Assembly: GCA_040755995.1 (NCBI GenBank)
Contig: JBFMAF010000013.1
Span: forward strand, 757 to 64,756
DNA: 64,000 nucleotides
Reading direction: 5' to 3'
Source of the DNA: Acidobacteriota bacterium
GTDB taxonomy: Bacteria > Acidobacteriota > CAIWXX01
In this document: piece by piece, positions 10,961 through 64,000 of the stretch
Layout: each line of letters begins with the position of its first letter
How positions within the stretch are numbered: the stretch's first letter is position 1
Translations under genes and position numbers: made by a program
The notes under the pieces: model-generated
The model's database searches: none
What the model saw: the letters and a program-made list of their open reading frames with translations, nothing else
What the model was told of the DNA's origin: nothing

Positions 10961-11071
10961 GACTTCCCCTAGTGAGCCGCGCCTCAAAGCCACCAGATCC
11001 CCGCGTGCGCGTATTGAGGCACCGCTCCCGAAACTCGACACAATCCCAGCATCTCTTCAGCTCCGGGCATC

Positions 11072-11521: not shown

Positions 11522-12011
11522 CGTATTTCCCCAATCCCAGGCGCGTCGTGCCTGTTACTACGCAGTTACAAGGGGATCTCGGGCTGTCGATCCTGATCAC
11601 GGTATCTGGCTCCAGCAACCCCTTTCGAGATGCAGTCAACAGCCCGAGAGTGGTGCTCGGTGTCGAGGGAATGCTGAGGCCCCCGACCGTCCCGTTCAAC
11701 GTGAATGACAGAGTCGTGATGGAAAGATTCGGGATCTTCTCATTCGCGTCCGGCACGCCGTCGCCGTCTCTGTCCTCGTAGACTGTGAAACCGTTCTGGG
11801 CAAACTGGATGATATGGGGGACGTTCCGTTGCATGGCACGCTGGCGCGCCTCCATCATGTCCCCGTATATCGTGCGCATCTGGTTTTCGGCCCTGTAGCG
11901 GTCGACGAGCGTCTTCGAGAACGGCACCGATATCGCCAGTACCAGGGCCACGGCCAGAATCACAACCAGCAGCTCGACCAGGGAGAATCCTCGGCAGTCT
12001 TGTTTGATCAT
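11496..12011 (-). CDS. FimT/FimU (GspH-domain) type IV pilus minor pilin
   Basis: MIKQDCRG|FSLVELLVVILAVALVLAI prepilin motif. Its ATG overlaps the PilY1-like TGA (ATGA), implying translational coupling. It contains a DRDGDGVPDANE motif that is shared with the PilY1-like protein. Confidence 0.6.
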   Translation of the reverse strand: MIKQDCRGFSLVELLVVILAVALVLAISVPFSKTLVDRYRAENQMRTIYGDMMEARQRAMQRNVPHIIQFAQNGFTVYEDRDGDGVPDANEKIPNLSITTLSFTLNGTVGGLSIPSTPSTTLGLLTASRKGLLEPDTVIRIDSPRSPCNCVVTGTTRLGLGKYDGTNCVVQ

Positions 12012-15000: not shown

Positions 15001-15921
15001 TCTGATAGGAGCTTTGCCCACTGTAATATCTCGGCCCGTTGGTCGAGTCCACAGTTGTATATTGGCGGAAGTAGCCGGTCATCGTCCAGAGAGTCTCGGC
15101 GAGTGGCGTATACCCGCCAGGATCCTCGTTCTTGATGGTTGTGACGAAGCTGGTGGGGTCCTGATCCATACATGCCAGAATGACGTGGCCCCCTCTTTCG
15201 TTCGAGTGCTGGTAGTTGGCCAGGCCAAAACGGGCATTCCCGCTCAGCTCTTGATAGATGCCGGTTTCCCGCTCTATTCCGTCCGTCACGTTGATCTTCA
15301 CCGCGAAGTAACTGGAGAAGCCGCTGCAGTTGTTGTAGGGGCTGACCGTGTCGACCCGAAACTGGGAAACGCCGTTTCCAGTGTCGAATTCGAAACATCG
15401 GGTGCCGCTGTAAGGCGTATACAGGTCGGCGCTGGAGACCTGCTTCAGATACCCTCGCGAAGTGTCGTCGGCCATTTCGGCAAGTTTGTCGTTGGTATTG
15501 GTGCCTGAACGCGCCGTCCCGTCACCCCCGATCAACACCTCACGCAGGATGTCGATGCGTCGCATCGTCAACCAGTTCATGAAGTTGCCGTCCCAGGAGT
15601 TGGCCGGGCGAGCTCCACTCTTGAGCCCGGCCGCCGTGTAGGCGTTGTTGGCGTAAGTGTACCAGTAGCTGGTATTGAAGTAGCCATAGTAGTCATTTGC
15701 AGGGTTGAAGCCCGTGCTGGTGCTGCTGCCGTTGAAGTCGTATGCAAAATACGCCATTGATCCGGAGTTGTCCAGCACGATCATGATGTTCGGCTTCAGT
15801 GGAGTCTGCATGAAAGGCGGCTGGATGCAATACGTGTTCATCGCCGTCTGGGCTGTCGCCACCGAGCCGACAGCCAGGCACACCAGCGCCGCGTAACAAG
15901 TGCATCTCACGAGTTTGGCCA
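12008..15921 (-). CDS. PilY1/PilC-like type IV pilus tip adhesin, N-terminal von Willebrand A domain (1304 aa)
   Basis: GGAGGA RBS before ATG at 15921. Signal peptide, then IMIVLDNSGSM (the vWA MIDAS motif DxSxS). Several DxDxDG calcium-binding-type loops (DRDGDGVPDNY, DNDGDGVKD) and a large beta-rich C-terminal region. It is the first gene of a minor-pilin operon. Confidence 0.65.
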
Positions 15922-16253
15922 TATCTAGTCCTCCGCGTCGAGCAGACGCGAGCTCGCTCGCATCATGCTTCAGTCCGTTTGGCTTGGAATGCGTCAACAT
16001 CTGGGGAGCCCCCGGTCGCGCTCACGCCTGCTCTCTGACCTCAAGGATCCTCCCACAAGTTGGGTTAATGCAAGAAGAGTGCCGAGATCGGCGGAGCCGG
16101 CCGGTCCGGTCAAAGTCCTTGTGTGTCAATGGATTGTGCTGAATCACGGGTCGATAGGGGGCTGCACGCCGGCGCGGAGCCGAGAGACGCTATCGTCGGA
16201 GTGTGTAGTTTGGTAACAGTTGCGACTCCCTCGATCGCCTGCCCGGCAGCGCC

Positions 16254-47507: not shown

Positions 47508-49571
47508 CTAGTCCAGGACCTGCTGGCTCAACGTGCGCAATCGCGCCTCGAACAACCGCGGATCGGCATCGCCGTAACGAGCGGCGTAGTATAGCTCGGC
47601 AAGCTCCCGGCAGGCTGCGCGTCGCCCGTCCCCGGGAAACCGCCGGGCGAATTCGAGCGGCGTCTCGGCTTCGAGCTTGTGGTACCCACGCCGCTCGGCT
47701 TCTCGAAGGAATCGGACGTACGCTCGGGCCACTCTCCCGATCCTGCGAGACTCGACCGGCGCCACCCCCTCCAGCCTGAGCGGCTTGCGTGAGCTGAGCG
47801 TGAAGAACAGCAGGGCCGCGGCGCAGATCGCGGCGACGGCCACGGCGGCGGCCCGCCGCGGGATCGTGGGGGCCTGCAGGTAGGACCGGCTCCTGTCGAG
47901 AGTCTCCTGCAAAGCGCCCCTCATGCGCTGCACCGCCTGGCTCACCTCCATGATCACATAGAACTGGTCCCAGAGATTGTAGGTGAGCACGTAGCGGTCC
48001 CAGTAGAGCTTGTACGAATCCCAGTAGTTGCGAATCATGCCGATGAGCGAGAACGGGCTCTCGGCAACGGTCTCGACGGCGCCAGGCGTCGGATCGAACC
48101 GGATCCAGCCGCTGCCCGGGAAGTGCGCCTCGACCCAGGCGTGCGCGTCCAACTGGCGGACGACGTAGAAGTTGCCGGTTGAATTGAACTCGCCCCCGAG
48201 GAATCCCGATACCACCACGGCAGGGATGCCGACGGAGCGGCAGAGGAGCGCCATGGAGGTGGCGAAGTACTCGCAGTGGCCCAGCTTCTGGTTGAACAGG
48301 AAATCGTCGACCACGCTCAGCGACTCGTCGCGCGCGGGGAGATCGAGCGTGTAGGCGTAGTTGGACCGGAGGTACTCCTCGATTTTTCTACAAGCGTCGT
48401 AGTTCGTGGCGGCGCCCTGGGTGATCTGCTGGGCGAACGGAGCGAGACGCTCCTCGCCGGGCGGCATCTTCAACTGCTCGATGTCCGCGCGCGGCCCTGG
48501 GGCGTCCGGCACCGATGCCGGCCGCTCGGGTAGCTCGGCCGATTCGACGTACGACATCCTGTAGTAGCGCTGGTAGCGGGAGTATATCGTGCTCCCGTCT
48601 GTCTCGAGCCAGAAGAAGCGGCCCCGGAGCGTCAGCGGACGCCCGGCTACGAACACCACCTCGGAATCCATCGGCTCGACGACGAACTCGAACTCCACCC
48701 TCGGTCCGTCGTGGCGCGGTCGCTGGATCGGGTGCGTGTCTTCGCCTATCCTGGTGACCATCGACCGCCGCTGCGCCCGCTGCCACTGCCTGCCGTCGTA
48801 GGACGAGTAGGTGATCCCCGTCCAGTAGATGGGCCTGTCGAGCGGGCCATCGCCGTCGAGCCGTTTCACGCGCATGACGACGGACGGATCTTTCTTTATA
48901 GAGCCGATCCGGTCCAGCATCACGCGGTCTGAGAAGCCCGAGACGATCTGCGATTCCGCCCGCAGGCGCTGGAAATACCCCATGCTGAGCCGCGGTATCA
49001 GGAAGAAGATGAGGATTGCCAGCGCGGCGGAGCCCGCCGTCATGACCGCACTGAGACGCAGCACCGGTGGAGCCTCGGCGGTTTCGCCGCCATCTTTCAA
49101 TGACGCCATCGCCATTAGCAGCACCAGACCGATGACGACAAAGGCGAGCAGGCCCGGAAGCAAAGTGGCCTCGGTGGTCAGCACGGAGGCCGCGAGGAGC
49201 TGGAAGAACGAGATCGCGATCAACTGGTACCGGTCGCGGTCGGCATGGCGGTCGAAGAGCTTGGCGAGCTGCAGGAAGTACAGCAGCCTCGCTATGGGCC
49301 CGATGATCTCGTGGCTCGCCGCGAAGTCCAGGAAGAGAACAGGGAGGTAGAGCAGCGAGAGCCCGTTCCAAACCCGGCGAAGAAGAACCTGGCGGCGCAC
49401 CAGGTAGCCGCGATCCAGGGCCACGACGAAGAGCGGTACATACAGCGCCGCTTGGAAGAGGAACTTGGCAGGGTCCGACGTGAATAGAGTCACGGCGGAG
49501 GCGAGGGCGAGTGCCAGCAGCGCCGGATCGACGATGAGATCGCTTCGACGGAGCAGGTGCGGCAGGGCCAT
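47508..49571 (-). CDS. transglutaminase-like domain membrane protein (TgpA-like; DUF3488 + TGase core)
   Basis: N-terminal TM bundle. Core C-H-D: GHCEYFATSMALLCRSVGIPA...DAHAWVEAHFPGSGWIRFDPT. ATG at 49571 (MALPHLL), or at 49613 inside the heptamer repeat. Confidence 0.75.
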   Translation of the reverse strand: MALPHLLRRSDLIVDPALLALALASAVTLFTSDPAKFLFQAALYVPLFVVALDRGYLVRRQVLLRRVWNGLSLLYLPVLFLDFAASHEIIGPIARLLYFLQLAKLFDRHADRDRYQLIAISFFQLLAASVLTTEATLLPGLLAFVVIGLVLLMAMASLKDGGETAEAPPVLRLSAVMTAGSAALAILIFFLIPRLSMGYFQRLRAESQIVSGFSDRVMLDRIGSIKKDPSVVMRVKRLDGDGPLDRPIYWTGITYSSYDGRQWQRAQRRSMVTRIGEDTHPIQRPRHDGPRVEFEFVVEPMDSEVVFVAGRPLTLRGRFFWLETDGSTIYSRYQRYYRMSYVESAELPERPASVPDAPGPRADIEQLKMPPGEERLAPFAQQITQGAATNYDACRKIEEYLRSNYAYTLDLPARDESLSVVDDFLFNQKLGHCEYFATSMALLCRSVGIPAVVVSGFLGGEFNSTGNFYVVRQLDAHAWVEAHFPGSGWIRFDPTPGAVETVAESPFSLIGMIRNYWDSYKLYWDRYVLTYNLWDQFYVIMEVSQAVQRMRGALQETLDRSRSYLQAPTIPRRAAAVAVAAICAAALLFFTLSSRKPLRLEGVAPVESRRIGRVARAYVRFLREAERRGYHKLEAETPLEFARRFPGDGRRAACRELAELYYAARYGDADPRLFEARLRTLSQQVLD

Positions 49572-49598
49572 GACGCTCAACCTCTGCCGGCCCGGCAG

Positions 49599-49633
49599 CG
49601 GATTCCGCATTCCGCATTCCGCATTCCGCAATC
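49599..49633. repeat. tandem heptamer (CGGATTC CGCATTC CGCATTC CGCATTC CGCAATC) at the DUF58-TgpA junction
   Basis: Direct reading. On the coding (minus) strand the unit GAATGCG contains an ATG in every unit. Confidence 0.8.
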
Positions 49634-49683
49634 CCAAGGACGAGAGCGCACGACAGGCGCATGCGGAACGGCCACACGCGCCA

Positions 49684-50838
49684 TTACTGTGCCCCTTCGA
49701 CGTGGCGGTCGGCAGGGGCGACGCGGTAGGCCTTGAACGGCAGGCCGGCGGACCCCGTTCGCGCCGAGAAGAAGATGGGTATCGATCCTCCAATGGCGTC
49801 GCTCGACTGCGAGCGACAGAACTCGAGCCCGCGCTCGACCGGGCAATAGGGGAGGAGTGCCAGGTGGCGCTGCGCGGCCGAGTAGTGACCGGGGCCGGCC
49901 CCGAAGGGCAGCCTTCCGGCGGTTGTGACAAGCTGGTAGCTCATGAGCTCGCGGTGCAAGTAGTCTACGATCGAGGCCGCCAGCGAGATCTGTGTCTCCA
50001 GATCGTCCTCCTGCTCTTTCGAGACAGCGGAGGCATCGACGAGGATCGTCACCCGCACGTTGACGTTCACAAGGAAATCGCGCGCCATGACCTTGGCAAC
50101 CCGGCTCGACGCCTTCCAGTCGATGATCCGCGCGCTCTCACCCGGCGCGTACTCGCGGATCTGGTAGAGATCTTCACCAAGCCCCTTGAAGACAGCTGCA
50201 TACTCGCCGTGCCCGCCCTCACGCTCCGGGAAAAACGGAACGATTCTCTCGATCTTCGGGTAGACCACTATCTTCTCGGGCGAGCGAATCCGCTTGTACC
50301 GCATGAAGAATCCGAACGGATAGTGGCTGCGCAGCTCCAGCGGCGCTCTGGGCACCTCGCCGCGCTTCGGGTGTACGCTCTCGATCATCAGCGTGCGCGA
50401 GGATCGCGTGCCCAGATACGGCAGGTAGGCGGGCTCCGTGGCGGTCTCGGTAGCCGCGCGCACGGACACCGTTGGGAACAGGCGTTTCTCGTTCTTGACG
50501 GCGATCGACTCCACGTACGGTGTCGTCGCGTAGATCGCGGTCGGCGAGCTGCGGACTATGGAGAGCTTCCGCATGGATGCGCGACTGCTGATCCCCGAGA
50601 CCAACAGGGTCGCCAGCATCATCGAGAAGACGAGAAACAGGAGGTTGTTGCCGGTGTTCACGGCGGCCAGCCCGACAACGAGCGCCATGATCACGAATCG
50701 AAGACCGAATCCGGTTGGGCGCACCCGGCTCTCGGAGGACGGCCACCACAGCTCCGCCAATCGCGCCCGAATGCGACGGAGCGTCGCCGCCAAATCGGAT
50801 GTCTCCCGCGAAGCATCCGCATCGGGCCTGCGCGACAA
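49684..50838 (-). CDS. DUF58 (vWA-like) protein, MoxR partner
   Basis: Two N-terminal TM segments plus the DUF58 core (YQIREYAPGESARIIDWKASSRVAKVMARDF). Confidence 0.8.
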   Translation of the reverse strand: MSRRPDADASRETSDLAATLRRIRARLAELWWPSSESRVRPTGFGLRFVIMALVVGLAAVNTGNNLLFLVFSMMLATLLVSGISSRASMRKLSIVRSSPTAIYATTPYVESIAVKNEKRLFPTVSVRAATETATEPAYLPYLGTRSSRTLMIESVHPKRGEVPRAPLELRSHYPFGFFMRYKRIRSPEKIVVYPKIERIVPFFPEREGGHGEYAAVFKGLGEDLYQIREYAPGESARIIDWKASSRVAKVMARDFLVNVNVRVTILVDASAVSKEQEDDLETQISLAASIVDYLHRELMSYQLVTTAGRLPFGAGPGHYSAAQRHLALLPYCPVERGLEFCRSQSSDAIGGSIPIFFSARTGSAGLPFKAYRVAPADRHVEGAQ

Positions 50839-50887
50839 CGTGATCCTCCTTCGTGGAACCCGGCCGGCTGCGGTCCGGAAGTTCTCC

Positions 50888-51847
50888 TCAGATCGGGACC
50901 GGCGTCCTGTCTACGATCCTCAGGATCTCGCTCTCCGCCGCCTCGCGCCTCTCCTTCTCATTCCCATACTGCGAGAACGTCCGCACTCTGTGAGCCAGCA
51001 CCGGAACGGCCATCGCCTTGACGTCGTCAGGTGTGGCGTAGTCGCGCCCGTAGAGGACCGACCGCGCCTGGCATGCGCGATAGCAGATGAGCGAGCCGCG
51101 GGGGCTCACGCCCAGCGCGAATACGTGGCTCGAACGAGTCTCACGCACGATCCGTGTCATGTAGTCCAGCAGCGAGTCCTCGACTCTCACCCGCTTCACC
51201 ATCTCCTGCAGCTCCAGCACCTCCTCCTTGGTGAGCACCGGCCGCAGGTCGTCGATCGGGTGATGAGACACCTGCGACCGGACAATCTCCTTCTCCATGT
51301 CCTGCTCCGGATAGCCCATTCGCACCTGCAGATGGAACCTGTCCAGCTGCGACTCGGGCAGCGGGAAGGTGCCGTGGAAGTCGATCGGGTTCTGGGTGGC
51401 GATTACCATGAAGGGCTGGCTTAGAGTGTACGTCCGGCTGTCGATCGAGACCTGCGTGTCCGACATCGCTTCAAGCAGCGCGCTCTGTGTCTTCGGCGTC
51501 GTCCGGTTTATCTCATCTACGAGGATGATGTTCGAGAAAACCGGGCCCGGTTTGAATTCGAAGCCGGCCGTCTGCTGGTTGAAGACATTCACCCCGAGGA
51601 TGTCGCTCGGCAGCAAGTCTGATGTGAATTGAATCCTGTGGAAAGTAGCGGAAATCGACTTCGCCAGCGAGGAGGCGAGCATCGTCTTGCCCACTCCGGG
51701 GATATCCTCGATCAACAGGTGGCCGCGCGCAAGGAGCGTCGCCACGGCGACCTCCACCACGCTCCGCTTTCCCTTGATCACCGTTTCAATATTCGATATC
51801 AACCGGGAGAGTTTCTTCTGGCCTTCTCTGTGGTCCATCTTCATCAC
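50888..51847 (-). CDS. MoxR-family AAA+ ATPase
   Basis: GHLLIEDIPGVGKT Walker A, VDEINRTTPKTQSALLEAM, and the C-terminal helical domain. Confidence 0.9.
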   Translation of the reverse strand: MMKMDHREGQKKLSRLISNIETVIKGKRSVVEVAVATLLARGHLLIEDIPGVGKTMLASSLAKSISATFHRIQFTSDLLPSDILGVNVFNQQTAGFEFKPGPVFSNIILVDEINRTTPKTQSALLEAMSDTQVSIDSRTYTLSQPFMVIATQNPIDFHGTFPLPESQLDRFHLQVRMGYPEQDMEKEIVRSQVSHHPIDDLRPVLTKEEVLELQEMVKRVRVEDSLLDYMTRIVRETRSSHVFALGVSPRGSLICYRACQARSVLYGRDYATPDDVKAMAVPVLAHRVRTFSQYGNEKERREAAESEILRIVDRTPVPI

Positions 51848-52103
51848 CGAATCATCGATGCGTTGTTTGCAATCGAGTACTCCTCTTTGTCCACATTATA
51901 CTGCCGTCGAACAGAACATCAACCCCGGGCTCCACTGCGCCCTGGTTTCGGTCCTCTGGGCAAGTGGCCGTGCTCTGCTGCGCGCCGTGTGTCACTATCC
52001 GAAGTACCCGGCGACGGTCCGTTGGTATTCCACGGCAGGGCGGGATCACGGAGATCCAAAGGCATGTATTGAAAGTTGAGTGTCTTATGCTAAGATTTTA
52101 TGC

Positions 52104-52132
52104 TTGACAGATGCTCATTTAGTTGCTATATT
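52104..52132 (+). promoter_or_regulatory. sigma70-type promoter of groES-groEL (TTGACA-17-TATATT)
   Basis: Read directly. About 35 bp upstream of the AGGAGG RBS. No CIRCE inverted repeat was seen. Confidence 0.55.
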
Positions 52133-52164
52133 AGGGTCTTGATATTTTTAGGAGGTGAGACTAC

Positions 52165-54107
<1,943 letters not shown>

Positions 54108-54164
54108 AAACACGCAGTGCACCTGCGGCGGCGGGCGGGTGCGCGTGGCACAGGACGTACGCGG

Positions 54165-54202
54165 GCGGGAAGAGGCGCGCGCCTCTTCCCGCTCTGCATT
54201 TT
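54165..54202 (+). terminator. putative intrinsic terminator after groEL
   Basis: GGGAAGAGGCGC/GCGCCTCTTCCC stem followed by GCTCTGCATTTT. Confidence 0.5.
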
Positions 54203-54225
54203 GGCGCGACGGCCGTGGGGCGAAG

Positions 54226-54593
54226 TGAAGCGAAGAGCGTTCGAAAAGCTGGTTGCAGAGGCGCTGGCAGAGATCCCCGAAGAGCTCGCCCGGAGGCTCG
54301 AGAACGTCGATGTCGTGATCGAAGACGAGCCGGACCCGGAGCTCCTGGAGGAGATGGGGATGGACCCGGAGACCTCGACGCTCTTCGGGCTCTACCAGGG
54401 CGTGCCTCTCACGCAGCGGGACTCGCGCTACGGCCTGGTCCTGCCCGACAAGATAACGATCTTCCGTTTTCCGATCGAAGACGAGTGCGAGTCGGCCGAG
54501 CAGATCAAGGCCGAGATCAGGCGAACGGTAGTGCACGAGATCGCCCACCATTTCGGCATCTCCGACGCGCGGCTCCGCGAGCTGGGGTACTGA
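54226..54593 (+). CDS. small zincin-like metallopeptidase family protein (HExxH)
   Basis: TVVHEIAHHFGISDARLRELGY at the C-terminus. Minimal zincin fold (DUF1025/Zincin_1-like). GTG start assumed. Confidence 0.5.
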
Positions 54594-54827
54594 AACCGGT
54601 CCTGCCGAACCTGCCCACGATTCAGTATTCAACCCAGACCTGTTCGTCCTCCCACACGGAGAACTCCGCTGCCCTGACCGGTTTGCGGCGATACCCCTCG
54701 CGCTGCCTGGCCTCGAGTTCCGCGACGCTGCTCCTACCTGAGGGCTTCAGGTCTCCCTGCGTAGACGCCGAGCGCGATGCCCTCAGTCGCTTCGTCGCCT
54801 TGACCGGTGCGGCAACGAGGTCCCTGC

Positions 54828-56792
54828 TCACCAGTCGTCGAAGCCGTTGCAGTTGGAGTCCTTGTGGTCGGCTGGGGCTTCGAACGCGCCCGGGTGGACG
54901 CTGGCGTCGTTATCGTTGCAATCGGAGCCGCGAATATCACCCAGGTACTGGCTGGCGTACTTGTCTCCGTCCACGTCGTACACCTTCAGCGTGTTGCTCG
55001 TGGTCGTCGCGCCGAGATTGTCGGTGGCCGTTCCAACGATCGTGAACACCCCGGCCTGCGCGTACGTGTGCGAATAGGCGGTGCCGGGCGTTATCGATCC
55101 AGATGCGCCGTCGCCGAAATCGAGCGTGGCTGATGCAACGTAACCATCGCTGTCGCTGGCCGTGAGGATTACGACCACTTTGAGCGGGTTCTGCGAACCA
55201 CCCCCCGTCGCAGACAGAATGGCAGACGGCGGCTGGTTGGGGAGCGTGACCTTGATCTGCTGCGTTTCGGTATCGGTCGCCCCCTTGTTGTCCGTGACCT
55301 TCAACACGGCGCTGTACGTGCCGTTGGCAGAGTACTTGTGGGTCGTGGTGGCGCCGCTGGCCTTCGCGGAGTTGTCCCCGAAGTCCCATTCGTACGCGAT
55401 GATCGTGCCATCGGGGTCGGTCGAGGCTGTTCCGTTTAATGCGAAGGTCGTGTTTGTATCACCCTGCGTCGGAGTCACGGTGAAGCTCGCAACGGGCGGC
55501 TTGTTGGGACCCGTGACGTTGATGAATGCCTCGGCCGTTCCCGTCAGATCGTCGTCGTCGGTCACCGTGAGCCTGCAGAGGTAGTTGCCCTCGCGCTGGT
55601 AGGTATGGCTGATGATTACTCCGGTTCCCTTCTGCCCGTCCCCGAACGTCCATTCCCAGCTCACGATGCTGCCGTCAGCGTCGCTGCTGTTCGAGCCGTC
55701 GAGAGAGGTCGTGAAAGGCACGGGCCCGGAGTTGGGATTGGCGGTGAACCTCGCCACGGGCGCCTGCTGGCCCGGGATCGGCGCGGGGGAGTAGATCATC
55801 TGCGCCGGCCCCACGGCTATCTCACCGCCGTCCACACCGTCGACGAAGACATGGTATCGTGCCGGTTCCAGGTTCTCCAGGTAGTACCGCTTGCTCACCT
55901 CGTTCTGCTTCAGATCGATCTGGGTGGTTTCGCCGTTCTGTTTGAGGTATGCCGACTGCCCCTTCACCTTGAACACAACTTCACCGCGGTCCTTGCCCAG
56001 TGGATCGCGACCGATCTTCTCCCAGGCAGCGTCGTCGGCGAGGAAAAGTGTCGAGAGCTTGTACACGGCGTCGTTCTCATCCTTGATGTCGAGGATCGGG
56101 CGCTTGCCCGTCACAAAGGGGCCGTGGCGCAATCCCAGGCGTATCTTCAGCCCGAGCACGAACTGCAGGATCGTCGGGTTCGACGCGCTCATCGGAATCA
56201 GGCCATCGTCCTTGGACGTCACGATGAGTAGCCTGGGATACTTGTTCATCAGCGTCGGATCGGCCCGGATTCGAGCCGCCGTGTTCTTGATGAGGGTGTA
56301 GAAGGCTGCGAAGTAGTTCGAACCCTTCTCCAGCGTGGGCTCGAGCTTGCCGCTCATGCCCGTGTACGTCAGCACCCCGCCGATGTCATGGGCATCCGCG
56401 TCGATACCGGATACCAGCGGACTGATGAGCACCGCCCGTGACACCATTGTCTCACGGATCGCCTTGTCCTTCAGGATCGCATCGAACACGGCGGTGGCCG
56501 CGACCGAGTGTGCGATGACGCCGATCTTCTGGTGATTGGACTTCTCGTAGGCCTCGCGGATCTCAGTTTTCACCGAAGCCGCGTACGCGGCGAACGACGT
56601 CGCCTTGAGATTGGGCTTCCCCACGATCGCCGACTGTCCGAGAACGGTGACCCATGTCTCGAATGCCGTGTCGGGATTCGAGTAGCCCAGGCCGCTCAGC
56701 AGAAGCACTTTCGACGGCATCGCCGCATGCGCCGCCGGATTGCTCAGGATCGCCAGCGTCAGAACCAGCGCAATCAACGCACCCTTCATCAC
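54828..56792 (-). CDS. secreted alpha/beta-hydrolase (lipase/esterase-like) with three PKD domains and a C-terminal Cys/Asp-rich motif
   Basis: Signal peptide. Nucleophile elbow GVIAHSVAAT. PKD repeats (WEWTFGDGQKG...SHTY, YEWDFGDNS...HKY, LDFGDGASG...SHTY). C-terminal DCNDNDASVHPG...DSNCNGFDD. Confidence 0.65.
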   Translation of the reverse strand: MMKGALIALVLTLAILSNPAAHAAMPSKVLLLSGLGYSNPDTAFETWVTVLGQSAIVGKPNLKATSFAAYAASVKTEIREAYEKSNHQKIGVIAHSVAATAVFDAILKDKAIRETMVSRAVLISPLVSGIDADAHDIGGVLTYTGMSGKLEPTLEKGSNYFAAFYTLIKNTAARIRADPTLMNKYPRLLIVTSKDDGLIPMSASNPTILQFVLGLKIRLGLRHGPFVTGKRPILDIKDENDAVYKLSTLFLADDAAWEKIGRDPLGKDRGEVVFKVKGQSAYLKQNGETTQIDLKQNEVSKRYYLENLEPARYHVFVDGVDGGEIAVGPAQMIYSPAPIPGQQAPVARFTANPNSGPVPFTTSLDGSNSSDADGSIVSWEWTFGDGQKGTGVIISHTYQREGNYLCRLTVTDDDDLTGTAEAFINVTGPNKPPVASFTVTPTQGDTNTTFALNGTASTDPDGTIIAYEWDFGDNSAKASGATTTHKYSANGTYSAVLKVTDNKGATDTETQQIKVTLPNQPPSAILSATGGGSQNPLKVVVILTASDSDGYVASATLDFGDGASGSITPGTAYSHTYAQAGVFTIVGTATDNLGATTTSNTLKVYDVDGDKYASQYLGDIRGSDCNDNDASVHPGAFEAPADHKDSNCNGFDDW

Positions 56793-57220
56793 GCCACCTC
56801 CTCGAAGTACCTCGGCTCATTATACCGGCTTGGCCCCGTCCCCCGCAACAGGCCTTGCGAACACGAACACCCTGAGCGTGGCCAGCCACTCCAACCCCGG
56901 AAGCGCCAAGACTGATTGTTCTTGACGAATGACCAGATGGGGCATATGTTGCGGTTCAAGATGGGATGCGTTGAAGGTCGAAGAGCATCGCAGGACGCGG
57001 CTGCCAGCCTCCGCCTCCTCTGGTGCTCTGATTCTTCTTCATTCCCATCCAACACGTCTTTTCCAGCCGTTCCCCAGAACGGGCACGAAGCTGGTGCCGT
57101 TGTTTCTGGACACGACTCCCATGTCGATTCAGGACTCGTCGGGGCCGCCGCGGAGCACGCCTTTCTGCTTCTGCGCAGATTCTGATCCACTCTGGCCATT
57201 GCCGTCGCCGAGGAGAATGC

Positions 57221-57469
57221 ATGGAGGGGATCATCCGGGCCTGGGGCCGCATCCTGAACGGCTACAAGCCGAATCTGTCGATAGAAGTCACGCGAGAATG
57301 CCCGCTTCGCTGCTCGCAATGCGGCTGCATGGCGGCTGCGGGGCTCGGAGCGGTTGGCCGCCACCGGCTGCCGGGCGGTGTGATGGTTGGGACGGTATTC
57401 GAGCTCTCCGAGCGAGTCGGCAGGAGGATGCGGAGAGTTCGAGAGCGGTTCGTCGCGGCAGCGACCTAG
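57221..57469 (+). CDS. possible small Cys-rich protein or remnant of a radical-SAM gene N-terminus (82 aa)
   Basis: AGGAG at 5 nt before the ATG. LSIEVTRECPLRCSQCGC carries a CxxxCxxC motif like the rSAM [4Fe-4S] signature, but the downstream sequence does not continue as a radical SAM domain. Confidence 0.25.
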   Translation: MEGIIRAWGRILNGYKPNLSIEVTRECPLRCSQCGCMAAAGLGAVGRHRLPGGVMVGTVFELSERVGRRMRRVRERFVAAAT

Positions 57470-57839
57470 TGGCTTTCTCGCAGGCGCTGGAAAGTCGAGA
57501 TCCGAGGGAGTCGCGTCCACCGGTCGAGCACCAGCCGACTCAGCCTCAGCAATTGCGGACTTCCCTTCGCGCTCCCGCAAGGCCCATGGCATCGAACATC
57601 CGTCCCAGACCGGCGCCCGGAACTGGTCTCCCCGGCTTCGTGAAAGCGAACTTGACACGCCGTGCCGCAGATCGCTATGTTTCACATGTCGCTCCGGGGA
57701 TGTCCGCCTGGGTGGGAGCGTCTCGCGCAGGCTGCCTTAGGGCACAACGTGGCCGCTCCAGGACAGGCGGTGGTTCCTTCGGCGCGGCTGCAGAAACGTT
57801 CCTTACAACATCGCGACCAACTTGGCAGGGGGGTGAACC

Positions 57840-60182
57840 TTGGTGTCCATGCATGAATCAGCCGAACTGATCCGGCTTCTGAAGGAGCAGGTATCGCTGT
57901 TCAAGACCTTCGAGGACGAGCGCATCGAGGAGCTCGTGCGCGGATCGCGACAGATTACCATCGAGCCCAACGAGTCGGTTATTCGCTTCGGCGAAGAGGG
58001 GCGGTTCCTCGGGATCCTGCTCGACGGGCAGGCGGAGGTCTCCGTTACCGACGACCGCGGCGACAAACACCCGCTGCATGTCTTGCAGCCAGGCGAGATC
58101 TTCGGCGAGATGTCGCTCATGACCGGCGACAGGACCATGGCCGACGTGATAGGCCTGACCCGCTGCAGAGCGCTGCTCGTGCCCCAGCGCCTCTTCTCCA
58201 CCCTCATCGCCTCCCACCCGCCCTCGGTTGTTCAGCTGTCCAGGACGATCGTGGAGCGCCTGCGAAGTATGGCGTATGAGGAGAAAGGCAGTGAGCTGGC
58301 TGCGTCCGCCCTGAGACGCAGCGAGGATCCCTACGGCTTCCTGCTGCGCACAGAAGAGCCTGTGAGGATCCTGGTCATCAACTGCGGATCCTCCTCCCTG
58401 AAGTACAACCTGTTCGACACAGCAGATCCGCAGGCCAACGCGCGGGGCGGTATCGAACGAATCGGTGAGGACGGCACCCGCCTGACCCAGCGGACCTCCC
58501 GCGGCGAGACGCGCCGCGACCTGCCGCGCGGGGGACACGGCCAGGCATTCGCCGCCATGATCGAGGCGATGACGACCGGGGACGGAGCCGTGTTGCGGTC
58601 GCCGGGTGAGGTCTCGGCAGTGGGTCATAGGGTGGTGCATGGCGGCGACAGGCACAGCCACGCAACCGTCGTCACCGATGACGTGATCAAGGACATCGAG
58701 CAGGCGGCGTCCTTCGCGCCGCTCCATAATCCCGTCAATCTGATCGGCATCCGGGAGGCCCGCGCGCTGTTCCCTGACGCGCCGCAGGTGGCGGTGTTCG
58801 ACACCGCGTTTCATCAGAACATGCCGCCTTACGCCTATCTCTACGGCCTGCCATACGAGTACTATGAGGGGAAGCACCTGCGCCGATACGGCTTCCACGG
58901 CATCTCGCACAAGTACGTGTCGCTGAAGGTGGCGGAGTACATGAAACGGCCCTACAACGAGCTCGAGACCGTCGTGTGCCACCTGGGAAACGGGGCCTCG
59001 ATCTGCGCCATCGATCACGGACGCTCGGTCGACACGTCCATGGGGCTGACGCCCGCCGAGGGGCTCATGATGGGCACGCGGTGCGGCGACATGGACCCTG
59101 CGATTCTCGTGCACCTGATGCAAACCGAAGGGCTCGGGCCGGACGCACTGAACCGGCTCATCAACAAGGAGGGCGGATTGCGCGGGCTGTCGGGCGTTTC
59201 GAACGACATGCGCGAGATCGAAGCCGCGGCCGAAGCGGGCAGCCACCGGGCGCTGCTGGCGCTGAAGACCTTCTCGTACCGCGTGCGCAAGTACGTCGGC
59301 GCTTACGTGGCTGCGATGGGCGGCATCGACGCACTGGCCTTCACCGGCGGCATCGGGCAGGGCAGCGTGGGCGTGCGCAGCCTTGCGTGCCAGGGACTCA
59401 GCCACATGGGCATACGGATCGACGAGCAAAAGAATCGGGATGCGCGGGGGTTCGAGCGCGTCTGCGATATCTCGGCTGAAGATTCCGTGACCCACATCCT
59501 GGTCGTGCCGACCGACGAGGAACGTATGATTGCGCGCGAGACGCTGCGCGCGCTGGAGCGCGGCTACGTGGCCGACATTCTCAGCAAGCAGGAGCCGACG
59601 CCGGTGCCGATCGAAGTCTTGTCGCACCACGTGCATCTGGCGCAGGAGCACGTCGAGGCGCTGTTCGGCCCCGGCCATCAGTTGACACCGGTCGACGAGG
59701 GGTCATGGCCGGGGAGGTTTCTGTGTGAAGAACGCCTGAGGCTGGTCGGCCCCAAGGGTCACATCGACGACGTGCGCGTGCACGGCCCAGCGCGCAGGAC
59801 GACTCAAGTCGAGATAGCGCTCACGGAGCAGTTTAGGCTGGGTGTGGACGCTCCGATCCGGGAATCGGGTGACCTGGAGAATACGCCGGGCGTCTGGGTC
59901 GTGGGCAGCCATGGATCGATTGCGTTGGACAAGGGGGTCATCTGTGCGATGCGCCACATTCACATGACCCCCGAGGACGCATTGCGGATGGGGCTGAAAG
60001 ACAAGGACGTCGTGCAGGTGTCCGTGCCGGGCGAACGGCGGCTCATATTCGGCGACGTGCTGGTGCGAGTCAGCCCGACCTACAAGCTCGCGATGCACCT
60101 CGACACCGACGAAGGCAACGCCGCGAACATCACGGCCGGTGCGATCGGGCACGTCGACAGTATACAAGGCCGGAAGCAGTGA
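57840..60182 (+). CDS. tri-domain fusion of cyclic-nucleotide-binding domain, acetate kinase, and PduL-type phosphotransacylase
   Basis: cNMP fold (FGEMSLMTGDRTMADVIGL). AckA (ILVINCGSSSLKYNLFD, VHGGD, HLGNGASICAI, GTRCGDMDP). Two PduL repeats (LSHHVHLAQEHVEALFGPGH; AMRHIHMTPEDALRMGL; RVSPTYKLAMHLDTDEGNAANI) nearly collinear with Salmonella PduL. Confidence 0.8.
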   Translation: MVSMHESAELIRLLKEQVSLFKTFEDERIEELVRGSRQITIEPNESVIRFGEEGRFLGILLDGQAEVSVTDDRGDKHPLHVLQPGEIFGEMSLMTGDRTMADVIGLTRCRALLVPQRLFSTLIASHPPSVVQLSRTIVERLRSMAYEEKGSELAASALRRSEDPYGFLLRTEEPVRILVINCGSSSLKYNLFDTADPQANARGGIERIGEDGTRLTQRTSRGETRRDLPRGGHGQAFAAMIEAMTTGDGAVLRSPGEVSAVGHRVVHGGDRHSHATVVTDDVIKDIEQAASFAPLHNPVNLIGIREARALFPDAPQVAVFDTAFHQNMPPYAYLYGLPYEYYEGKHLRRYGFHGISHKYVSLKVAEYMKRPYNELETVVCHLGNGASICAIDHGRSVDTSMGLTPAEGLMMGTRCGDMDPAILVHLMQTEGLGPDALNRLINKEGGLRGLSGVSNDMREIEAAAEAGSHRALLALKTFSYRVRKYVGAYVAAMGGIDALAFTGGIGQGSVGVRSLACQGLSHMGIRIDEQKNRDARGFERVCDISAEDSVTHILVVPTDEERMIARETLRALERGYVADILSKQEPTPVPIEVLSHHVHLAQEHVEALFGPGHQLTPVDEGSWPGRFLCEERLRLVGPKGHIDDVRVHGPARRTTQVEIALTEQFRLGVDAPIRESGDLENTPGVWVVGSHGSIALDKGVICAMRHIHMTPEDALRMGLKDKDVVQVSVPGERRLIFGDVLVRVSPTYKLAMHLDTDEGNAANITAGAIGHVDSIQGRKQ

Positions 60183-60346
60183 GCTCAGCCCGCGTTGCCG
60201 CGGGCTCCGTCGCGAAGGCGACTGGCGGTGCGCGCCTCCCGGCACGCTCCGCTCAGCGAACTCAGGCCGGCCGGGCTCATCGCCGGCCAGCCTGACTCAT
60301 TCAGGCGCGGACTGCCATGGCGCCAGCATTGCTGCCAGGGAACCGC

Positions 60347-61399
60347 TCACCTTCTCAATGAGGAAATGTCGACGACAAATCGGTACTTGACGTCGCTCCT
60401 GAGCATCCGGTCGTATGCTTCGTTGATCTTCTGCACAGGGATGACCTCGACGTCGGACAGGATGTTATGCCCGTTGCAGAAATCGAGCATCTCCTGCGTC
60501 TCCTTGATGCCTCCGATGAGCGAGCCTGCCAGTTGCCGCCTTCCCATAATCAGGTTCATCACGCTGGGAGACGGATGCGGTGTAGCGGGAGCGCCCACAA
60601 GGCACATGGTACCGTCGCGTTTCAGCAGCGCGAGGTACTGGTCGAGATTGTGGGTGAAGGAGACCGTGTTGAGGATGAAGTCGAAACTGCTGGCATGCCT
60701 CTTGAAGTCATCGGGATTGTTGGAGATCACGACCTCGTCCGCGCCCATCCGCACGGCATCTCCGGTCTTGCCGGGCGAGGAGGTGAACAGGACGACGTGG
60801 GCCTCGAGTGCGTGGGCGATCTTGACGCCCATGTGCCCGAGGCCGCCGAGCCCCACAATGCCCACCTTCCGGCCTTTGGTCGCATTCCAGTGACGCAGGG
60901 GCGAGTAGGTCGTGATGCCGGCGCAGAGCAACGGCGCTACCCCGGCAAGATTCTGCGTTCCCGGCACGTGCAGCACGAAATGCTCGTCCACCACGATGTG
61001 ACCCGAGTAGCCGCCGTAGGTCTGCTTTCCAGTGTGCTCGTCCTTGCTGTTGTAAGTCAGCACGAGCTTTCTGCGGCAGAATTGCTCGAGACCTTCCCGG
61101 CAATCCGGGCACGCGCGGCACGAATCGACCATACATCCTACGGCTGCGAAGTCGCCGGCCTTGAACCCGCTGACTGCGACTCCAGCTTTCGTCACGCGTC
61201 CGACGATTTCATGCCCCGGGACCACCGGGTACGTCGTGTTCCTCCACTCATTCCGCGCTGTGTGCAAATCCGAATGGCAGATGCCGCAGTAAAGGATTTC
61301 GATCTGCACGTCCTTGGGACCAGGCTCGCGCCGCTCGAACTCGAAGTACTCCAGAGGTGAGGTTTCGCTGTGCGCCGCGAAGCCGTGTGCCTTGCTCAT
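60347..61399 (-). CDS. NADP-dependent zinc alcohol dehydrogenase (YahK/CAD family)
   Basis: GICHSDLHTARNEW, GHEIVGRV, structural-zinc Cys cluster (CRACPDCREGLEQFC), GLGGLGHMGVK Rossmann fold. Confidence 0.85.
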   Translation of the reverse strand: MSKAHGFAAHSETSPLEYFEFERREPGPKDVQIEILYCGICHSDLHTARNEWRNTTYPVVPGHEIVGRVTKAGVAVSGFKAGDFAAVGCMVDSCRACPDCREGLEQFCRRKLVLTYNSKDEHTGKQTYGGYSGHIVVDEHFVLHVPGTQNLAGVAPLLCAGITTYSPLRHWNATKGRKVGIVGLGGLGHMGVKIAHALEAHVVLFTSSPGKTGDAVRMGADEVVISNNPDDFKRHASSFDFILNTVSFTHNLDQYLALLKRDGTMCLVGAPATPHPSPSVMNLIMGRRQLAGSLIGGIKETQEMLDFCNGHNILSDVEVIPVQKINEAYDRMLRSDVKYRFVVDISSLRR

Positions 61400-61684
61400 T
61401 TGTGTCCTCCTGTTTCATGGCTGTGCCCTTCTCGATGGCACCTGCACCAGGCATGCAAACGTCTCGTTCCTGGCTTGCCTGCCCCATCCAGGAGGATAGT
61501 CGTCCGGCCCAATGAGTTCAAGTCCTATGCGTCACACTGGGACACGAGGTATACAATTCAATTGCGCGCATGGATGCTTCCAGCTACCATTGGCAGACAG
61601 TGACGAAAAACGGGGATTACGGCTTGTTCAAGCGCCACATACCACAGAGTTTCCGAACGTCACACACTTCATAGGAGGGTAGTC

Positions 61685-63424
61685 TTGATTCTGACGCGAT
61701 GGCTGGTTTCCGGTGTCCTGCTGTTCTCCATGGTGGTGCCGCGGAGCGCGGCGCCATGCACGACGACTCTGATCACCAAAGGCGCCACAGTGGACGGTTC
61801 CGTGTTCGTCTCGCACTCCGACGACGACGAGCTCGGGGATCAACGGATCATCTATGTGCCGGCGGCGGACCACAAGCCCGGCGAGAAGCGGCCGGTTCAC
61901 TACGATGCATCCTGCTATGGCGCGATGCCGGAGTACGGTGTGGGCCTGCCGCGGTACGTTGGCACCGGCCGCGGTCCGGGCTACGTCAACAAGAGTCTCC
62001 CGCCCGACACGCCCATCGGCTACGTCGATCAGGTGCCTCACACCTACGCCTACTTCGACGCGAACTACGGCATCATGAATGAGCACCAGCTGTGTTTCGG
62101 CGAATGCACGGACGGGGCGAAGGTGGAGCCGCTGCCCGAGCCGGGCAAGCGCATGTTCTACAGCTCCGAGTTGTCCCGCGTGGCGCTCGAACGGTGCACC
62201 AAGGCGCGCGAGGCGATCAAGCTGATGGGGTCGCTCATCGATCAGTACGGCTACTACGGCACCGGCGAGACGCTCCTGGTGGCCGACACCGAAGAGGGCT
62301 GGGTGTTCGAAATGTGCGGCTACGACCTGAACGGGAAGGACGGGCTGTGGGTCGCCAAGAGAGTGCCCGACGGCGAAGTGTTCGTCGCGGCCAACGAGTT
62401 TCGCATCCGCGACGTGGAGCCGAATTCACCCGACATGATGCACTCGGCCAACCTCTTCGACGTGGCGCAGAAGCTAGGATGGTGGAAACCATCGGACGGC
62501 AAGCTCGACTGGCTCAAGACCGTTTCCAACGGCGAGTACAACCACCCGTACTACTCGCTGAGACGCGTGTGGAGCCTGCTGAGGCGGCTGCAGCCGTCGG
62601 CTAACTACAGCCCGTGGGTGGAAGACGGTTTCACACGCGCCTACCCGTTCTCGGTGAAGCCCGACAAGAAGCTGGCGCTCTCGGACGTCTTCGCTCTGCA
62701 CCGGGACCACTACGAGGGCACGGAGTTCGATCTGACGAAGGGGCCGGCGGCCGGGCCGTACGGATCGCCAAACCGTTTCATCGGGAAGTACGACGGCAAC
62801 CAGAACAACGTCAGCACGCCGGGCCAGACGATGTGGGGCGCGTGGGAGCGGGCGATCTCGGTCTTCTACTGCGGCTACACGCAGGTAAACCAGGCGCGGA
62901 GCGCGTTCCCGGATCCGATCGGAGGCGTCTGCTGGTTCGGTCCCGACAGACCTTCGGAAACGTGCTTCGTCCCATTCTATGTCGGAGTGACCGGCCTGCC
63001 GCAGACGTATCAGGCCGGAAGTACGGAGGCCTTCCAATTGAAGGCGGCATGGTGGGCGTTCGACTTCGTCTCGAACTGGGCCGACCTGAAGTATAGCTAC
63101 ATGAAGGAGGACGTACGGGCGAAGCAGGCCGAGCTCGAGACAAAGGAGCTGTCGGTGCAGAAGGCCGTGGATATCGCCGCGGCGGAACTGTACAAGACCA
63201 GCCCCGAGCGGGCGCGCGAGTATCTCACCGACTACTGCACGGACAACGCCACGCGTGTCATGGCCGAGTGGTGGGCGCTGGCCGGCAAGCTGGTCCAGAA
63301 GTACGCCGACGGGTACGTGAATGAACCGGGCAACATGGCTCAGGAAGTCGGCTATCCGGAGGAATGGCTGAAGCGGGTGGGCTACGACAAGGGACCCATC
63401 ACGTACAAACAGCCTGGCAAGTAG
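61685..63424 (+). CDS. secreted peptidase C69-family dipeptidase (Ntn-hydrolase)
   Basis: AGGAGGG RBS then TTG start. Signal peptide MILTRWLVSGVLLFSMVVPRSAAP|CTTTLI, with cleavage predicted to expose the catalytic Cys1. C69 dipeptidase pattern. Confidence 0.7.
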   Translation: MILTRWLVSGVLLFSMVVPRSAAPCTTTLITKGATVDGSVFVSHSDDDELGDQRIIYVPAADHKPGEKRPVHYDASCYGAMPEYGVGLPRYVGTGRGPGYVNKSLPPDTPIGYVDQVPHTYAYFDANYGIMNEHQLCFGECTDGAKVEPLPEPGKRMFYSSELSRVALERCTKAREAIKLMGSLIDQYGYYGTGETLLVADTEEGWVFEMCGYDLNGKDGLWVAKRVPDGEVFVAANEFRIRDVEPNSPDMMHSANLFDVAQKLGWWKPSDGKLDWLKTVSNGEYNHPYYSLRRVWSLLRRLQPSANYSPWVEDGFTRAYPFSVKPDKKLALSDVFALHRDHYEGTEFDLTKGPAAGPYGSPNRFIGKYDGNQNNVSTPGQTMWGAWERAISVFYCGYTQVNQARSAFPDPIGGVCWFGPDRPSETCFVPFYVGVTGLPQTYQAGSTEAFQLKAAWWAFDFVSNWADLKYSYMKEDVRAKQAELETKELSVQKAVDIAAAELYKTSPERAREYLTDYCTDNATRVMAEWWALAGKLVQKYADGYVNEPGNMAQEVGYPEEWLKRVGYDKGPITYKQPGK

Positions 63425-63431
63425 CGGTCTG

Positions 63432-64000
63432 TCATCCACCCAGCGCGATGGCCACACCCACGAGTGTGCCGCCGAGCAGGAACATGGCCCCACCGGACCG
63501 CCATGGATTTGTGCCGGTATAGTGCGCCCACCGAAAACCGAGAACGAACAGGAGACCGAGCAACAGGCCGTTGGAGACTCGCAAGGCTGCCATGGGATCT
63601 TTCAAGATCATAAACGGCACCGCCGCCGGAACCGTGCATAGGAACTCCAGGCAGAAGATGGCAAGCGCACCGAGCAGATCCTCTTTCTTCACGCGCGTCC
63701 TCCGAGGCGCGGCGCGCGACATGACGGTGAGAATCCCTCTGTACAGCCGTTCGCGTTCCTGCTCGGTCGTGACCGGCTGCAGTTGCGGGTCCAGTTCGCG
63801 CGCGATCCTGGCGAGGGCGGCAGGTTCATCGGGGGCTTTGCGGAAGGCTTCGATGAACCGCACTCGCCGGCCTCGCTCCATGAGCTCGTTGGCGACGTAC
63901 AGGAATCCGTCGATGATCCCCCAGGCGATGTTGCAGCCGATCGTGGCTGCCAACAACTGGCCGACACCCTTTTCACCCTTTGCAACGAGCATCCCCGAAG
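63432..64000 (-). CDS. VIT1/CCC1-family (iron/manganese transporter-like) membrane protein, probably truncated at the window edge
   Basis: C-terminal TM helices (LLGLLFVLGFRWAHYTG..., MFLLGGTLVGVAIALGG) are preceded by a VIT-family cytoplasmic region. The N-terminus is possibly outside the window. Confidence 0.5.
   Translation of the reverse strand, partial: SGMLVAKGEKGVGQLLAATIGCNIAWGIIDGFLYVANELMERGRRVRFIEAFRKAPDEPAALARIARELDPQLQPVTTEQERERLYRGILTVMSRAAPRRTRVKKEDLLGALAIFCLEFLCTVPAAVPFMILKDPMAALRVSNGLLLGLLFVLGFRWAHYTGTNPWRSGGAMFLLGGTLVGVAIALGG

Follow-up and report, generated by a model that had tools for sequence, protein, structure and literature searches.

The phosphotransacetylase-acetate kinase pathway is the main substrate-level route to ATP in fermenters and supplies the acetyl phosphate that serves as a global donor of acetyl and phosphoryl groups. 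Enterobacterial Pta, with its N-terminal regulatory domain, and the mycobacterial cAMP-dependent acetyltransferase Pat, in which a cyclic-nucleotide-binding (CNB) domain is joined to a GNAT domain that controls acetyl-CoA synthetase, are both enzymes of the acetyl-CoA/acetate node with a fused allosteric sensor. Fusions of acetate kinase with a PduL-type phosphotransacylase (Ack-PduL) received a one-sentence mention in the 2016 paper on the structure of PduL, with the proposal that they replace Pta and allow channelling (Erbilgin et al., PLoS Biol, PMC4784909). Here we describe a gene in which a single frame of 780 codons encodes a CNB-fold domain, an acetate kinase and a PduL domain. It lies in a stretch of 64,000 nucleotides (the window, meaning the whole stretch that was analysed) from an Acidobacteriota metagenome-assembled genome (MAG; GenBank assembly GCA_040755995.1, contig JBFMAF010000013.1, positions 757 to 64,756 of the forward strand).

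The encoded protein resembles the Ack-PduL proteins of Erbilgin et al. in having a PduL fold joined to acetate kinase and no encapsulation peptide, but those proteins were mentioned and never assayed and no N-terminal sensor was described for them, and in a rough tree the PduL domain considered here falls in a separate group that carries the CNB-fold domain, unlike the two-domain form. Pta and Pat offer the likeness of a fused sensor at the same metabolic node, and the CNB domain even matches the NCBIfam Pat model weakly (E = 8.2e-07), but their catalytic folds are PTA_PTB or GNAT and Pat has a canonical cAMP site, whereas the ligand cassette described below is without the arginine. A literature search over 8 million full-text papers found no paper on the sensor-bearing three-domain form and only the one-sentence remark on Ack-PduL, in agreement with a preliminary description of this locus, made from the sequence, that knew of no characterised enzyme with this architecture. 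The enzyme halves are members of textbook families and their fusion was already noted in 2016; of the sensor-bearing form no description was found.

The frame has no internal stop codon, begins with TTG in the list of open reading frames (ORFs) and has exactly the coordinates, strand and length first given for it. The ATG at 57849 is probably the true start, giving 777 amino acids (aa), since NCBI calls a 777-aa protein from this codon and the resulting N-terminus has the length usual in the family. The NCBI protein (MEW6364290.1 = P0001) is 100% identical to the window protein and is labelled 'MAG: acetate/propionate family kinase [Acidobacteriota bacterium]'. The three modules are complete and in the order originally proposed, with PF00027, PF00871 and PF06130 all scoring above their curated cut-offs and each over the whole profile: cNMP_binding at aa 40-126 (62.9 bits against a cut-off of 27.5, E = 2.9e-17), Acetate_kinase at aa 177-566 (475.3 bits, E = 1.5e-142, profile positions 2-391 of 392) and PTAC/PduL at aa 590-764 (234.7 bits, E = 7.5e-70, profile positions 1-175 of 176). 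The NCBIfam models for ackA (TIGR00016, 470.8 against 293.4) and for phosphate propanoyltransferase (PRK15070, NF011652, 236.7 against 209) were likewise exceeded.

The central domain aligns with the acetate kinase of Methanosarcina thermophila (PDB 1G99/1TUY) with 190 of 401 columns identical (~47%). The catalytic residues N7, R91, H123, D148, H180, N211, R241 and E384 of 1G99 correspond to N181, R264, H296, D321, H353, N384, R414 and E560, the acetate-pocket residues V93, L122, F179 and P232 to V266, L295, F352 and P405, and all are identical, as are S10, S12 and K14 of the ATP motif. We take the roles of these catalytic and pocket residues to be those described in the Ferry-laboratory literature. 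Among all the catalytic, Mg, ATP and acetate-pocket residues checked, the only difference is F284M, and the pocket is predicted to be of the acetate type, V266 corresponding to V93. Foldseek comparison with solved acetate kinases gave target-normalised TM-scores of 0.89-0.91. By profile, catalytic residues and pocket the domain thus belongs to the PF00871/TIGR00016 acetate/propionate kinases, differing from the M. thermophila enzyme in being flanked at both ends by extra domains.

The C-terminal domain matches the PduL of Rhodopseudomonas palustris (rPduL; PDB 5CUO/5CUP), a microcompartment phosphotransacylase, with E = 2.8e-45 against 5CUO, 77 of 178 residues identical (43%) and, by Foldseek, a target-normalised TM-score of 0.94 and a root-mean-square deviation of 1.4 A. 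All six zinc ligands of rPduL (H48, H50, E109, H157, H159 and H204) are intact as H597, H599, E658, H706, H708 and H753, the phosphate contacts R103 and S127 are kept as R652 and S676, and Q107, R194 and N211 are present as Q656, R743 and N760, the roles of the rPduL residues being those given with the structure (PMC4784909). The profile match, the two-zinc site and the phosphate contacts place the domain in PF06130. It differs from rPduL in that it is not a stand-alone protein and has neither an encapsulation peptide nor a microcompartment locus, and the residues conserved in the CoA- and acyl-binding region (rPduL S45, Q74, Q/E77 and L99) are missing from this copy (see below).

The N-terminal domain is a CNB fold by its profile score, by a beta-barrel followed by a C-terminal helix and by the Gly-Glu of its ligand cassette, and its sequence matches in the PDB are the CNB domains of PKA regulatory subunits (PKA-R), PKG, CRP and SthK. 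In the AlphaFold 2 (AF2) model its secondary structure is predicted with a local confidence (pLDDT) of ~77-93. The cassette runs from F88 to V103, with R98 and T99 as its eleventh and twelfth residues. G89 is found in 62 and E90 in 60 of 63 close relatives, and F88, G89, E90, M94, T95, G96, A101 and D102 are each at least 90% conserved in the family; the strong conservation of the remainder of the cassette argues for a pocket that is functional rather than decayed. A canonical cyclic-nucleotide cassette reads G-E-x-A-L-(4 residues)-P-R-[ST/A]-A, in which the arginine that binds the cyclic phosphate is R82 of CRP and R209 of PKA RI-alpha. Alignment by phmmer with three PKA regulatory subunits and by MAFFT with E. 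coli CRP and two PKA-R domains puts Thr99 in the arginine column, and this placement is free of gaps on both sides, to E90 and to A101, in every pairwise and multiple alignment. The column holds Thr in 45, Ser in 11, Ala in 6 and Asn in 1 of the 63 close relatives and Ile, Ala, Ser, Thr or Val in 15 representatives of distant clusters, with Arg in none of either set. The domain therefore lacks the residue that defines a classical cAMP/cGMP receptor, the role given to it in the preliminary description, and probably senses a non-classical ligand, classical binding of cAMP or cGMP being unlikely for a cassette without the arginine that holds the cyclic phosphate.

The AF2 model, built from a 64-sequence family alignment, has a mean pLDDT of 85.2 and a predicted TM-score (pTM) of 0.84, which suggests that the domains are held in a defined arrangement. 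It runs from the CNB barrel through helix 127-145, helix 150-160 and a coil with the DPYGF motif to the kinase, whose last helix (560-583) is prolonged by the connector into PduL. This connector is the least conserved segment of the protein (mean pairwise identity 0.40). Three residues of the CNB-kinase linker, D163, P164 and L169, are invariant in the 64 sequences, and the DPY motif (DPY[GD][FL]; 58326-58340, aa 163-167) recurs in nine of 19 distant cluster representatives checked. One of the nine, P0134, is without the CNB domain, yet starts just before the DPY motif. Foldseek against the PDB found no solved chain that spans two of the domains, the kinase and PduL being matched separately.

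The architecture is widespread. The best 120 matches in a collection of 5.8 billion proteins come from NCBI, JGI, ENA and Logan assemblies and share all three Pfam domains, with 744-800 aa, 59-71% identity and 96-99% query coverage. Their sources are spread over at least eight named phyla and bear such names as Acidobacteriota, Aminicenantes, Thermodesulfobacteriota, Kiritimatiellae, Verrucomicrobia, Planctomycetes, Myxococcales and Spirochaetales. Species-representative genomes were scanned with the C-terminal 235 aa and the domains of the matches were typed by tblastn and ORF extension. This placed the three-domain form in Binatia, Margulisiibacteriota, Draconibacterium, Chthoniobacterales and other Verrucomicrobiota, Rhodocyclaceae (Zoogloea, Azonexus) and Syntrophales, and a two-domain AckA-PduL of ~590-605 aa in Myxococcota, several orders of Bacteroidota (including the cultured Neolewinella agarilytica DSM 24740) and the Gammaproteobacteria (Granulosicoccus, Oceanicoccus and an Oleiphilaceae isolate), while Firmicutes had stand-alone PduLs of ~190 aa. 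A complete HMMER search of 1.84 billion representatives clustered at 50% identity added ~13 full-length three-domain clusters at 35-50% identity, further AckA-PduL proteins, CNB-AckA proteins without PduL (P0133 and P0146) and a receiver-domain-AckA protein (P0197), the last two arrangements being confirmed by Pfam. The presence of the architecture in the 120 best relatives, in many phyla and in the ~13 divergent clusters argues that it has been kept by selection over a long time, and in a rough neighbour-joining tree of the PduL domain, which without bootstrap is indicative only, the three-domain proteins cluster apart from the two-domain and stand-alone forms. The rarity implied at the outset is thus not borne out. 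The architecture is common, as the preliminary description had allowed it might be to its own detriment, and is present in public databases as a generic 'acetate kinase' or 'acetate/propionate family kinase'; it is annotated only in part, the label naming the kinase alone.

Several observations on the wider family stand beside this distribution. Sensor domains have been joined to the N-terminus of acetate kinase more than once, a CNB domain in P0133 and P0146 and a receiver domain in P0197. P0199 (759 aa) appears to be an AckA-Pta fusion, as judged from its sequence without Pfam confirmation. P0124, P0125, P0128, P0129, P0130, P0131, P0132, P0140 and P0142 are distant three-domain clusters, in several of which one domain is apparently a pseudoenzyme. 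At one locus (L023, 5557-9216) of a MAG labelled Syntrophus aciditrophicus the PduL frame continues for ~840 codons past PduL in an ORF of 1219 aa, and the upstream kinase part is interrupted; the locus either holds a larger fusion or reflects a fault of assembly or a frameshift.

Taken together, the protein is best read as a bifunctional enzyme of the phosphotransacetylase-acetate kinase pathway with an N-terminal allosteric sensor for a non-classical ligand, a reading to which we give a probability of about 0.65. With the half-reactions assigned from the established chemistry of Pta/PduL and AckA, the two-zinc site of the C-terminal domain would convert acetyl-CoA and phosphate to acetyl phosphate and CoA, and the central kinase would convert acetyl phosphate and ADP to acetate and ATP, both reversibly. 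The conversion of acyl-CoA through acyl-phosphate to acid plus ATP on one protein, as first proposed for this locus, is a sound prediction because both enzyme modules keep their active-site residues. The fusion would fix the two activities at 1:1, and acetyl phosphate, which is labile and active in signalling, may pass directly between the sites. The CNB-fold sensor on the N-terminal lobe of the kinase would tune the kinase through the two helices and the DPYGF linker, most likely allosterically, given a CNB fold with a strongly conserved cassette that is joined to the kinase by helices and a conserved motif. The direction of flux probably depends on the host, with acetate formation and ATP in fermenters and syntrophs and acetate activation in the acetate-storing Rhodocyclaceae.

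A number of points weigh against this reading. For every member of the family the activities, the channelling, the allosteric control and the direction of flux are what we infer from sequence, and the interdomain contacts are those of a predicted model. Separate pta, ackA, acs or cyclase genes may lie elsewhere in the genome, the Pfam scan having found no microcompartment shell gene, Pta or cyclase among the window genes that it covered. A Lys or Arg at position 98 of the cassette could still reach a cyclic phosphate. Finally, the PduL domain of this copy departs between 59619 and 59783 (aa 594-648) from residues that its relatives hold almost without exception, with S594L, L621G, Q626R and L648H against 63 of 63 and A595S and Q623W against 62 of 63, and its transacylase may have an altered acyl specificity or a partial loss of function.

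One proposal, more specific than the bifunctional reading and tentative, somewhat on the unlikely side, is that the CNB domain senses another ligand, for example a nucleoside, a nucleotide, a CoA-related metabolite or acetyl phosphate, and gates a channelled PduL-to-AckA reaction via the DPYGF linker. Less likely again is that the domain is a true cAMP/cGMP receptor, with the second messenger acting as an on-off switch for the acetyl-CoA-to-ATP module. The PF00027 match above its cut-off, best sequence matches to the cAMP- and cGMP-binding domains of PKA-R and PKG and the retention of G89 and E90 all fit such a receptor, and R98-T99 (Lys or Arg followed by Thr or Ser) would resemble the canonical Arg-Thr/Ser pair were the cassette one residue shorter. 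The ungapped alignment on both sides, however, puts Thr99 and not R98 in the arginine column. At position 98, moreover, Lys outnumbers Arg (38 against 22 of the 63 relatives), and the distant clusters have Pro, His, Leu, Ala or Lys there, so that this position is no conserved clamp for the phosphate. The window genes scanned included no cyclase. Experiments with trypanosome PKA-R, which binds purine nucleosides and is unresponsive to cAMP, have shown that introducing the arginine confers a response to cyclic nucleotides, the arginine being needed for that response, and that CNB domains without it bind other ligands (PMC10959531). The trypanosomatid PKA-R structures (PDB 6FLO, 6HYI) are among the best structural matches of the window CNB domain in Foldseek, and their cassette (GELELMYQTPTVA, compared with GEMSLMTGDRTMA in the window protein) is of equal length and likewise has Thr at the arginine column followed by a hydrophobic residue, PKA-R having Thr-Val in place of Arg-Ala. 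They differ at cassette position 4, where the Glu of kinetoplastid PKA-R, which binds ribose and clashes with phosphate, is replaced by Ser or Ala in the window family (Ser in 45, Ala in 13 and Glu in 4 of the 63 relatives), and a nucleoside ligand is for this reason not implied either.

The departures in the C-terminal domain raise the alternative that PduL is impaired in this copy and that the protein is mainly a sensor-regulated acetate kinase with a vestigial C-terminal domain, which we consider improbable. The window protein departs from residues held by at least 90% of the 63 relatives at 20 positions, 11 of which fall in PduL, and PduL is the only domain in which it diverges more from its relatives (0.66) than they do among themselves (0.72). 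Residues L594, W623, R626 and H648, where the relatives have Ser (63/63), Gln (62/63), Gln (63/63) and Leu (63/63), map to rPduL S45, Q74, Q77 and L99, which bind CoA or are candidates for positioning the acyl phosphate, S45 lining the proposed propionyl pocket (PMC4784909); with K70, the five rPduL residues S45, K70, Q74, Q77 and L99 become Leu, Asp, Trp, Arg and His. Four of the departures are at invariant columns. Decay of a single domain does occur in the family, since several distant clusters have lost one active site. Kinase residues are lost in P0125, P0128, P0130, P0132 and P0142 and PduL ligands in P0140 and P0131, with alignment error possible at such divergence, and several deep clusters that have lost N7, S10, S12, K14, R91, H123 and other kinase residues keep a perfect PduL site. 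Against impairment of the copy in the window, the six zinc ligands and R652, Q656, S676, R743 and N760 are intact, the Pfam score is still that of a match over the whole profile, and in the solved homologue the changed residues face away from the metals, so that a change of specificity rather than abolition is possible (PMC4784909). A compensated frameshift was considered as the source of the odd residues and rejected, as S622, P624, G625, F627, C629 and E631, which lie among them, are in frame and match the family.

Given that PduL is best known as a metabolosome core enzyme, the fusion might instead be part of a bacterial microcompartment pathway, as PduL and PduW are in propanediol use, and a similarity to microcompartment EutD in NCBIfam, below cut-off (228.6 against 315), points the same way. 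This is disfavoured and very improbable. The tests for a microcompartment core enzyme, an encapsulation peptide and shell genes, both failed. The N-terminus of PduL is fused to the kinase, which leaves no free encapsulation peptide, as Erbilgin et al. say of Ack-fused PduLs in general (PMC4784909), the kinase pocket is of the acetate type, and no Pfam shell domain was found in the window genes scanned. A tblastn search with PduA and EutN, which serves as a lead-level test, returned only chance matches from the window, the best with E = 2, and none from the sequence flanking 84 related loci. That the fusion is an artefact, created by a chimeric assembly or by overlooking a stop or frameshift between three adjacent genes, is refuted in practice and has next to no probability, and no point was found in its support. 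The frame is uninterrupted, the 120 best relatives, which come from independent assemblies, all have this architecture and length, both of which recur in species genomes across many phyla, invariant residues lie inside the linkers and the GC content at third codon positions (GC3) is uniform at 0.84 along the ORF.

Table 1. Features of the fusion gene, its protein domains and its surroundings in the window (positions of the window; aa, residues of the 780-aa frame).
Feature	Position	Strand	Basis or remark
Three-domain fusion gene	57840..60182	+	780 codons from TTG at 57840; stop codon 60180-60182
CNB-fold domain, aa 17-145 (beta-barrel, then long C-terminal helix, aa 127-145)	57888..58274	+	PF00027, PDB sequence matches, AF2
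Ligand cassette FGEMSLMTGDRTMADV, aa 88-103	58101..58148	+	Column counts; PKA-R/CRP alignments; distant representatives
CNB-kinase linker, aa 146-175 (second helix, aa 150-160, and motif D163-P164-Y165-G166-F167)	58275..58364	+	Conservation; AF2
Acetate kinase domain, aa 176-570	58365..59549	+	Pfam/NCBIfam; alignment to 1G99; Foldseek
Helical connector kinase-PduL, aa 571-589	59550..59606	+	AF2 secondary structure
PduL-type phosphotransacylase domain, aa 590-780	59607..60179	+	PF06130; alignment to 5CUO; Foldseek
Promoter-like site (TTGACA, 18 nt, TATGTT)	57652..57681	+	10/12 consensus matches; ~160 nt 5' of start
TgpA-type transglutaminase	47508-49931	-	Pfam
MoxR AAA+ ATPase	50888-51847	-	Pfam
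GroEL, 544 aa	52473-54107	+	Explains purine-rich skew at 52-54 kb
Secreted PKD-repeat protein	54828-56792	-	Pfam; weak sub-threshold serine-hydrolase match
Zinc alcohol dehydrogenase	60347-61399	-	Pfam
C69 peptidase	61685-63424	+	Pfam
VIT-family protein	63432-63992	-	Pfam

The fusion is a genuine stand-alone chromosomal gene of the Acidobacteriota MAG (Table 1). The alcohol dehydrogenase gene that follows it, which had been described as divergent, is in fact convergent (tail to tail), with 164 nt between the stop codons, and no terminator-like hairpin was detected in this gap. A functional link between the two was considered and set aside, since they converge and relatives do not have them as a pair; the dehydrogenase thus gives no functional hint. 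A conserved gene neighbourhood was likewise ruled out, three relatives on long contigs having unrelated neighbours (an aldehyde:ferredoxin oxidoreductase, a serine dehydratase and a DUF4114 protein), and the fusion gene therefore travels alone. The ~1 kb on its 5' side (56793-57839) is without a convincing gene, and an Rfam scan of 49800-64000 gave no match, with no riboswitch or leader detected in this gap. The promoter-like site in the gap is a possible promoter serving the fusion gene alone, the scan for the consensus having returned two sites against 0.7 expected, which is weak evidence. The gap also contains an ORF of 82 aa (57221-57469, + strand) with a radical-SAM-like start (LSIEVTRECPLRCSQCG, with a CxxxCxxC motif), an early stop and no Pfam match, which is probably the remnant of a gene.

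The rest of the window is housekeeping in character, with genes for prolyl-tRNA synthetase (ProRS), an L-aspartate-oxidase-like flavoprotein, a type IV pilus cluster, PBP1, FtsK, RNase J, MgsA, a DNA polymerase III delta-prime-like clamp-loader subunit (PF13177), GroEL and a MoxR-TgpA operon. The pilus cluster (9734-16000, - strand) includes a PilY1-like protein of 1330 aa, preceded by two small proteins with an N-terminal methylation motif (minor pilins), and several adjoining ORFs without a Pfam match. The 1-kb gap between the TgpA and MoxR genes (49932-50887) may hold a DUF58-type gene, in keeping with operons of this kind. Antisense ORFs at 52161-53855 and 54009-54632 (both - strand), picked by the GC3 filter, have no Pfam match, and an ORF on the 3' side of GroEL (54117-54593, + strand) has an HExxH zincin-like motif.

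A single protein with both steps of the pathway and a sensor would give direct post-translational control of the acetyl-CoA/acetate node. It would also serve as a natural test case for the channelling of acetyl phosphate and offer a compact module for ATP regeneration or acetate activation in engineering, and the non-canonical cassette provides a bacterial case for what CNB domains without the arginine bind. Should the CNB domain indeed gate a channelled reaction, the family would make up a widespread, hitherto undescribed class of enzymes for ligand-gated substrate-level phosphorylation among uncultured anaerobes, with sister clades that carry one pseudoenzyme domain having repurposed the scaffold. 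The fusion is a good biochemical target and relevant to the annotation of MAGs rather than a categorical surprise. In uncultured Acidobacteriota, Verrucomicrobiota, Planctomycetota, Desulfobacterota/Syntrophales and wastewater Rhodocyclaceae, where the family is abundant, the label 'acetate kinase' would conceal a Pta-equivalent activity, and because this annotation hides the PduL half, metabolic reconstructions of such MAGs may wrongly report phosphotransacetylase as missing.

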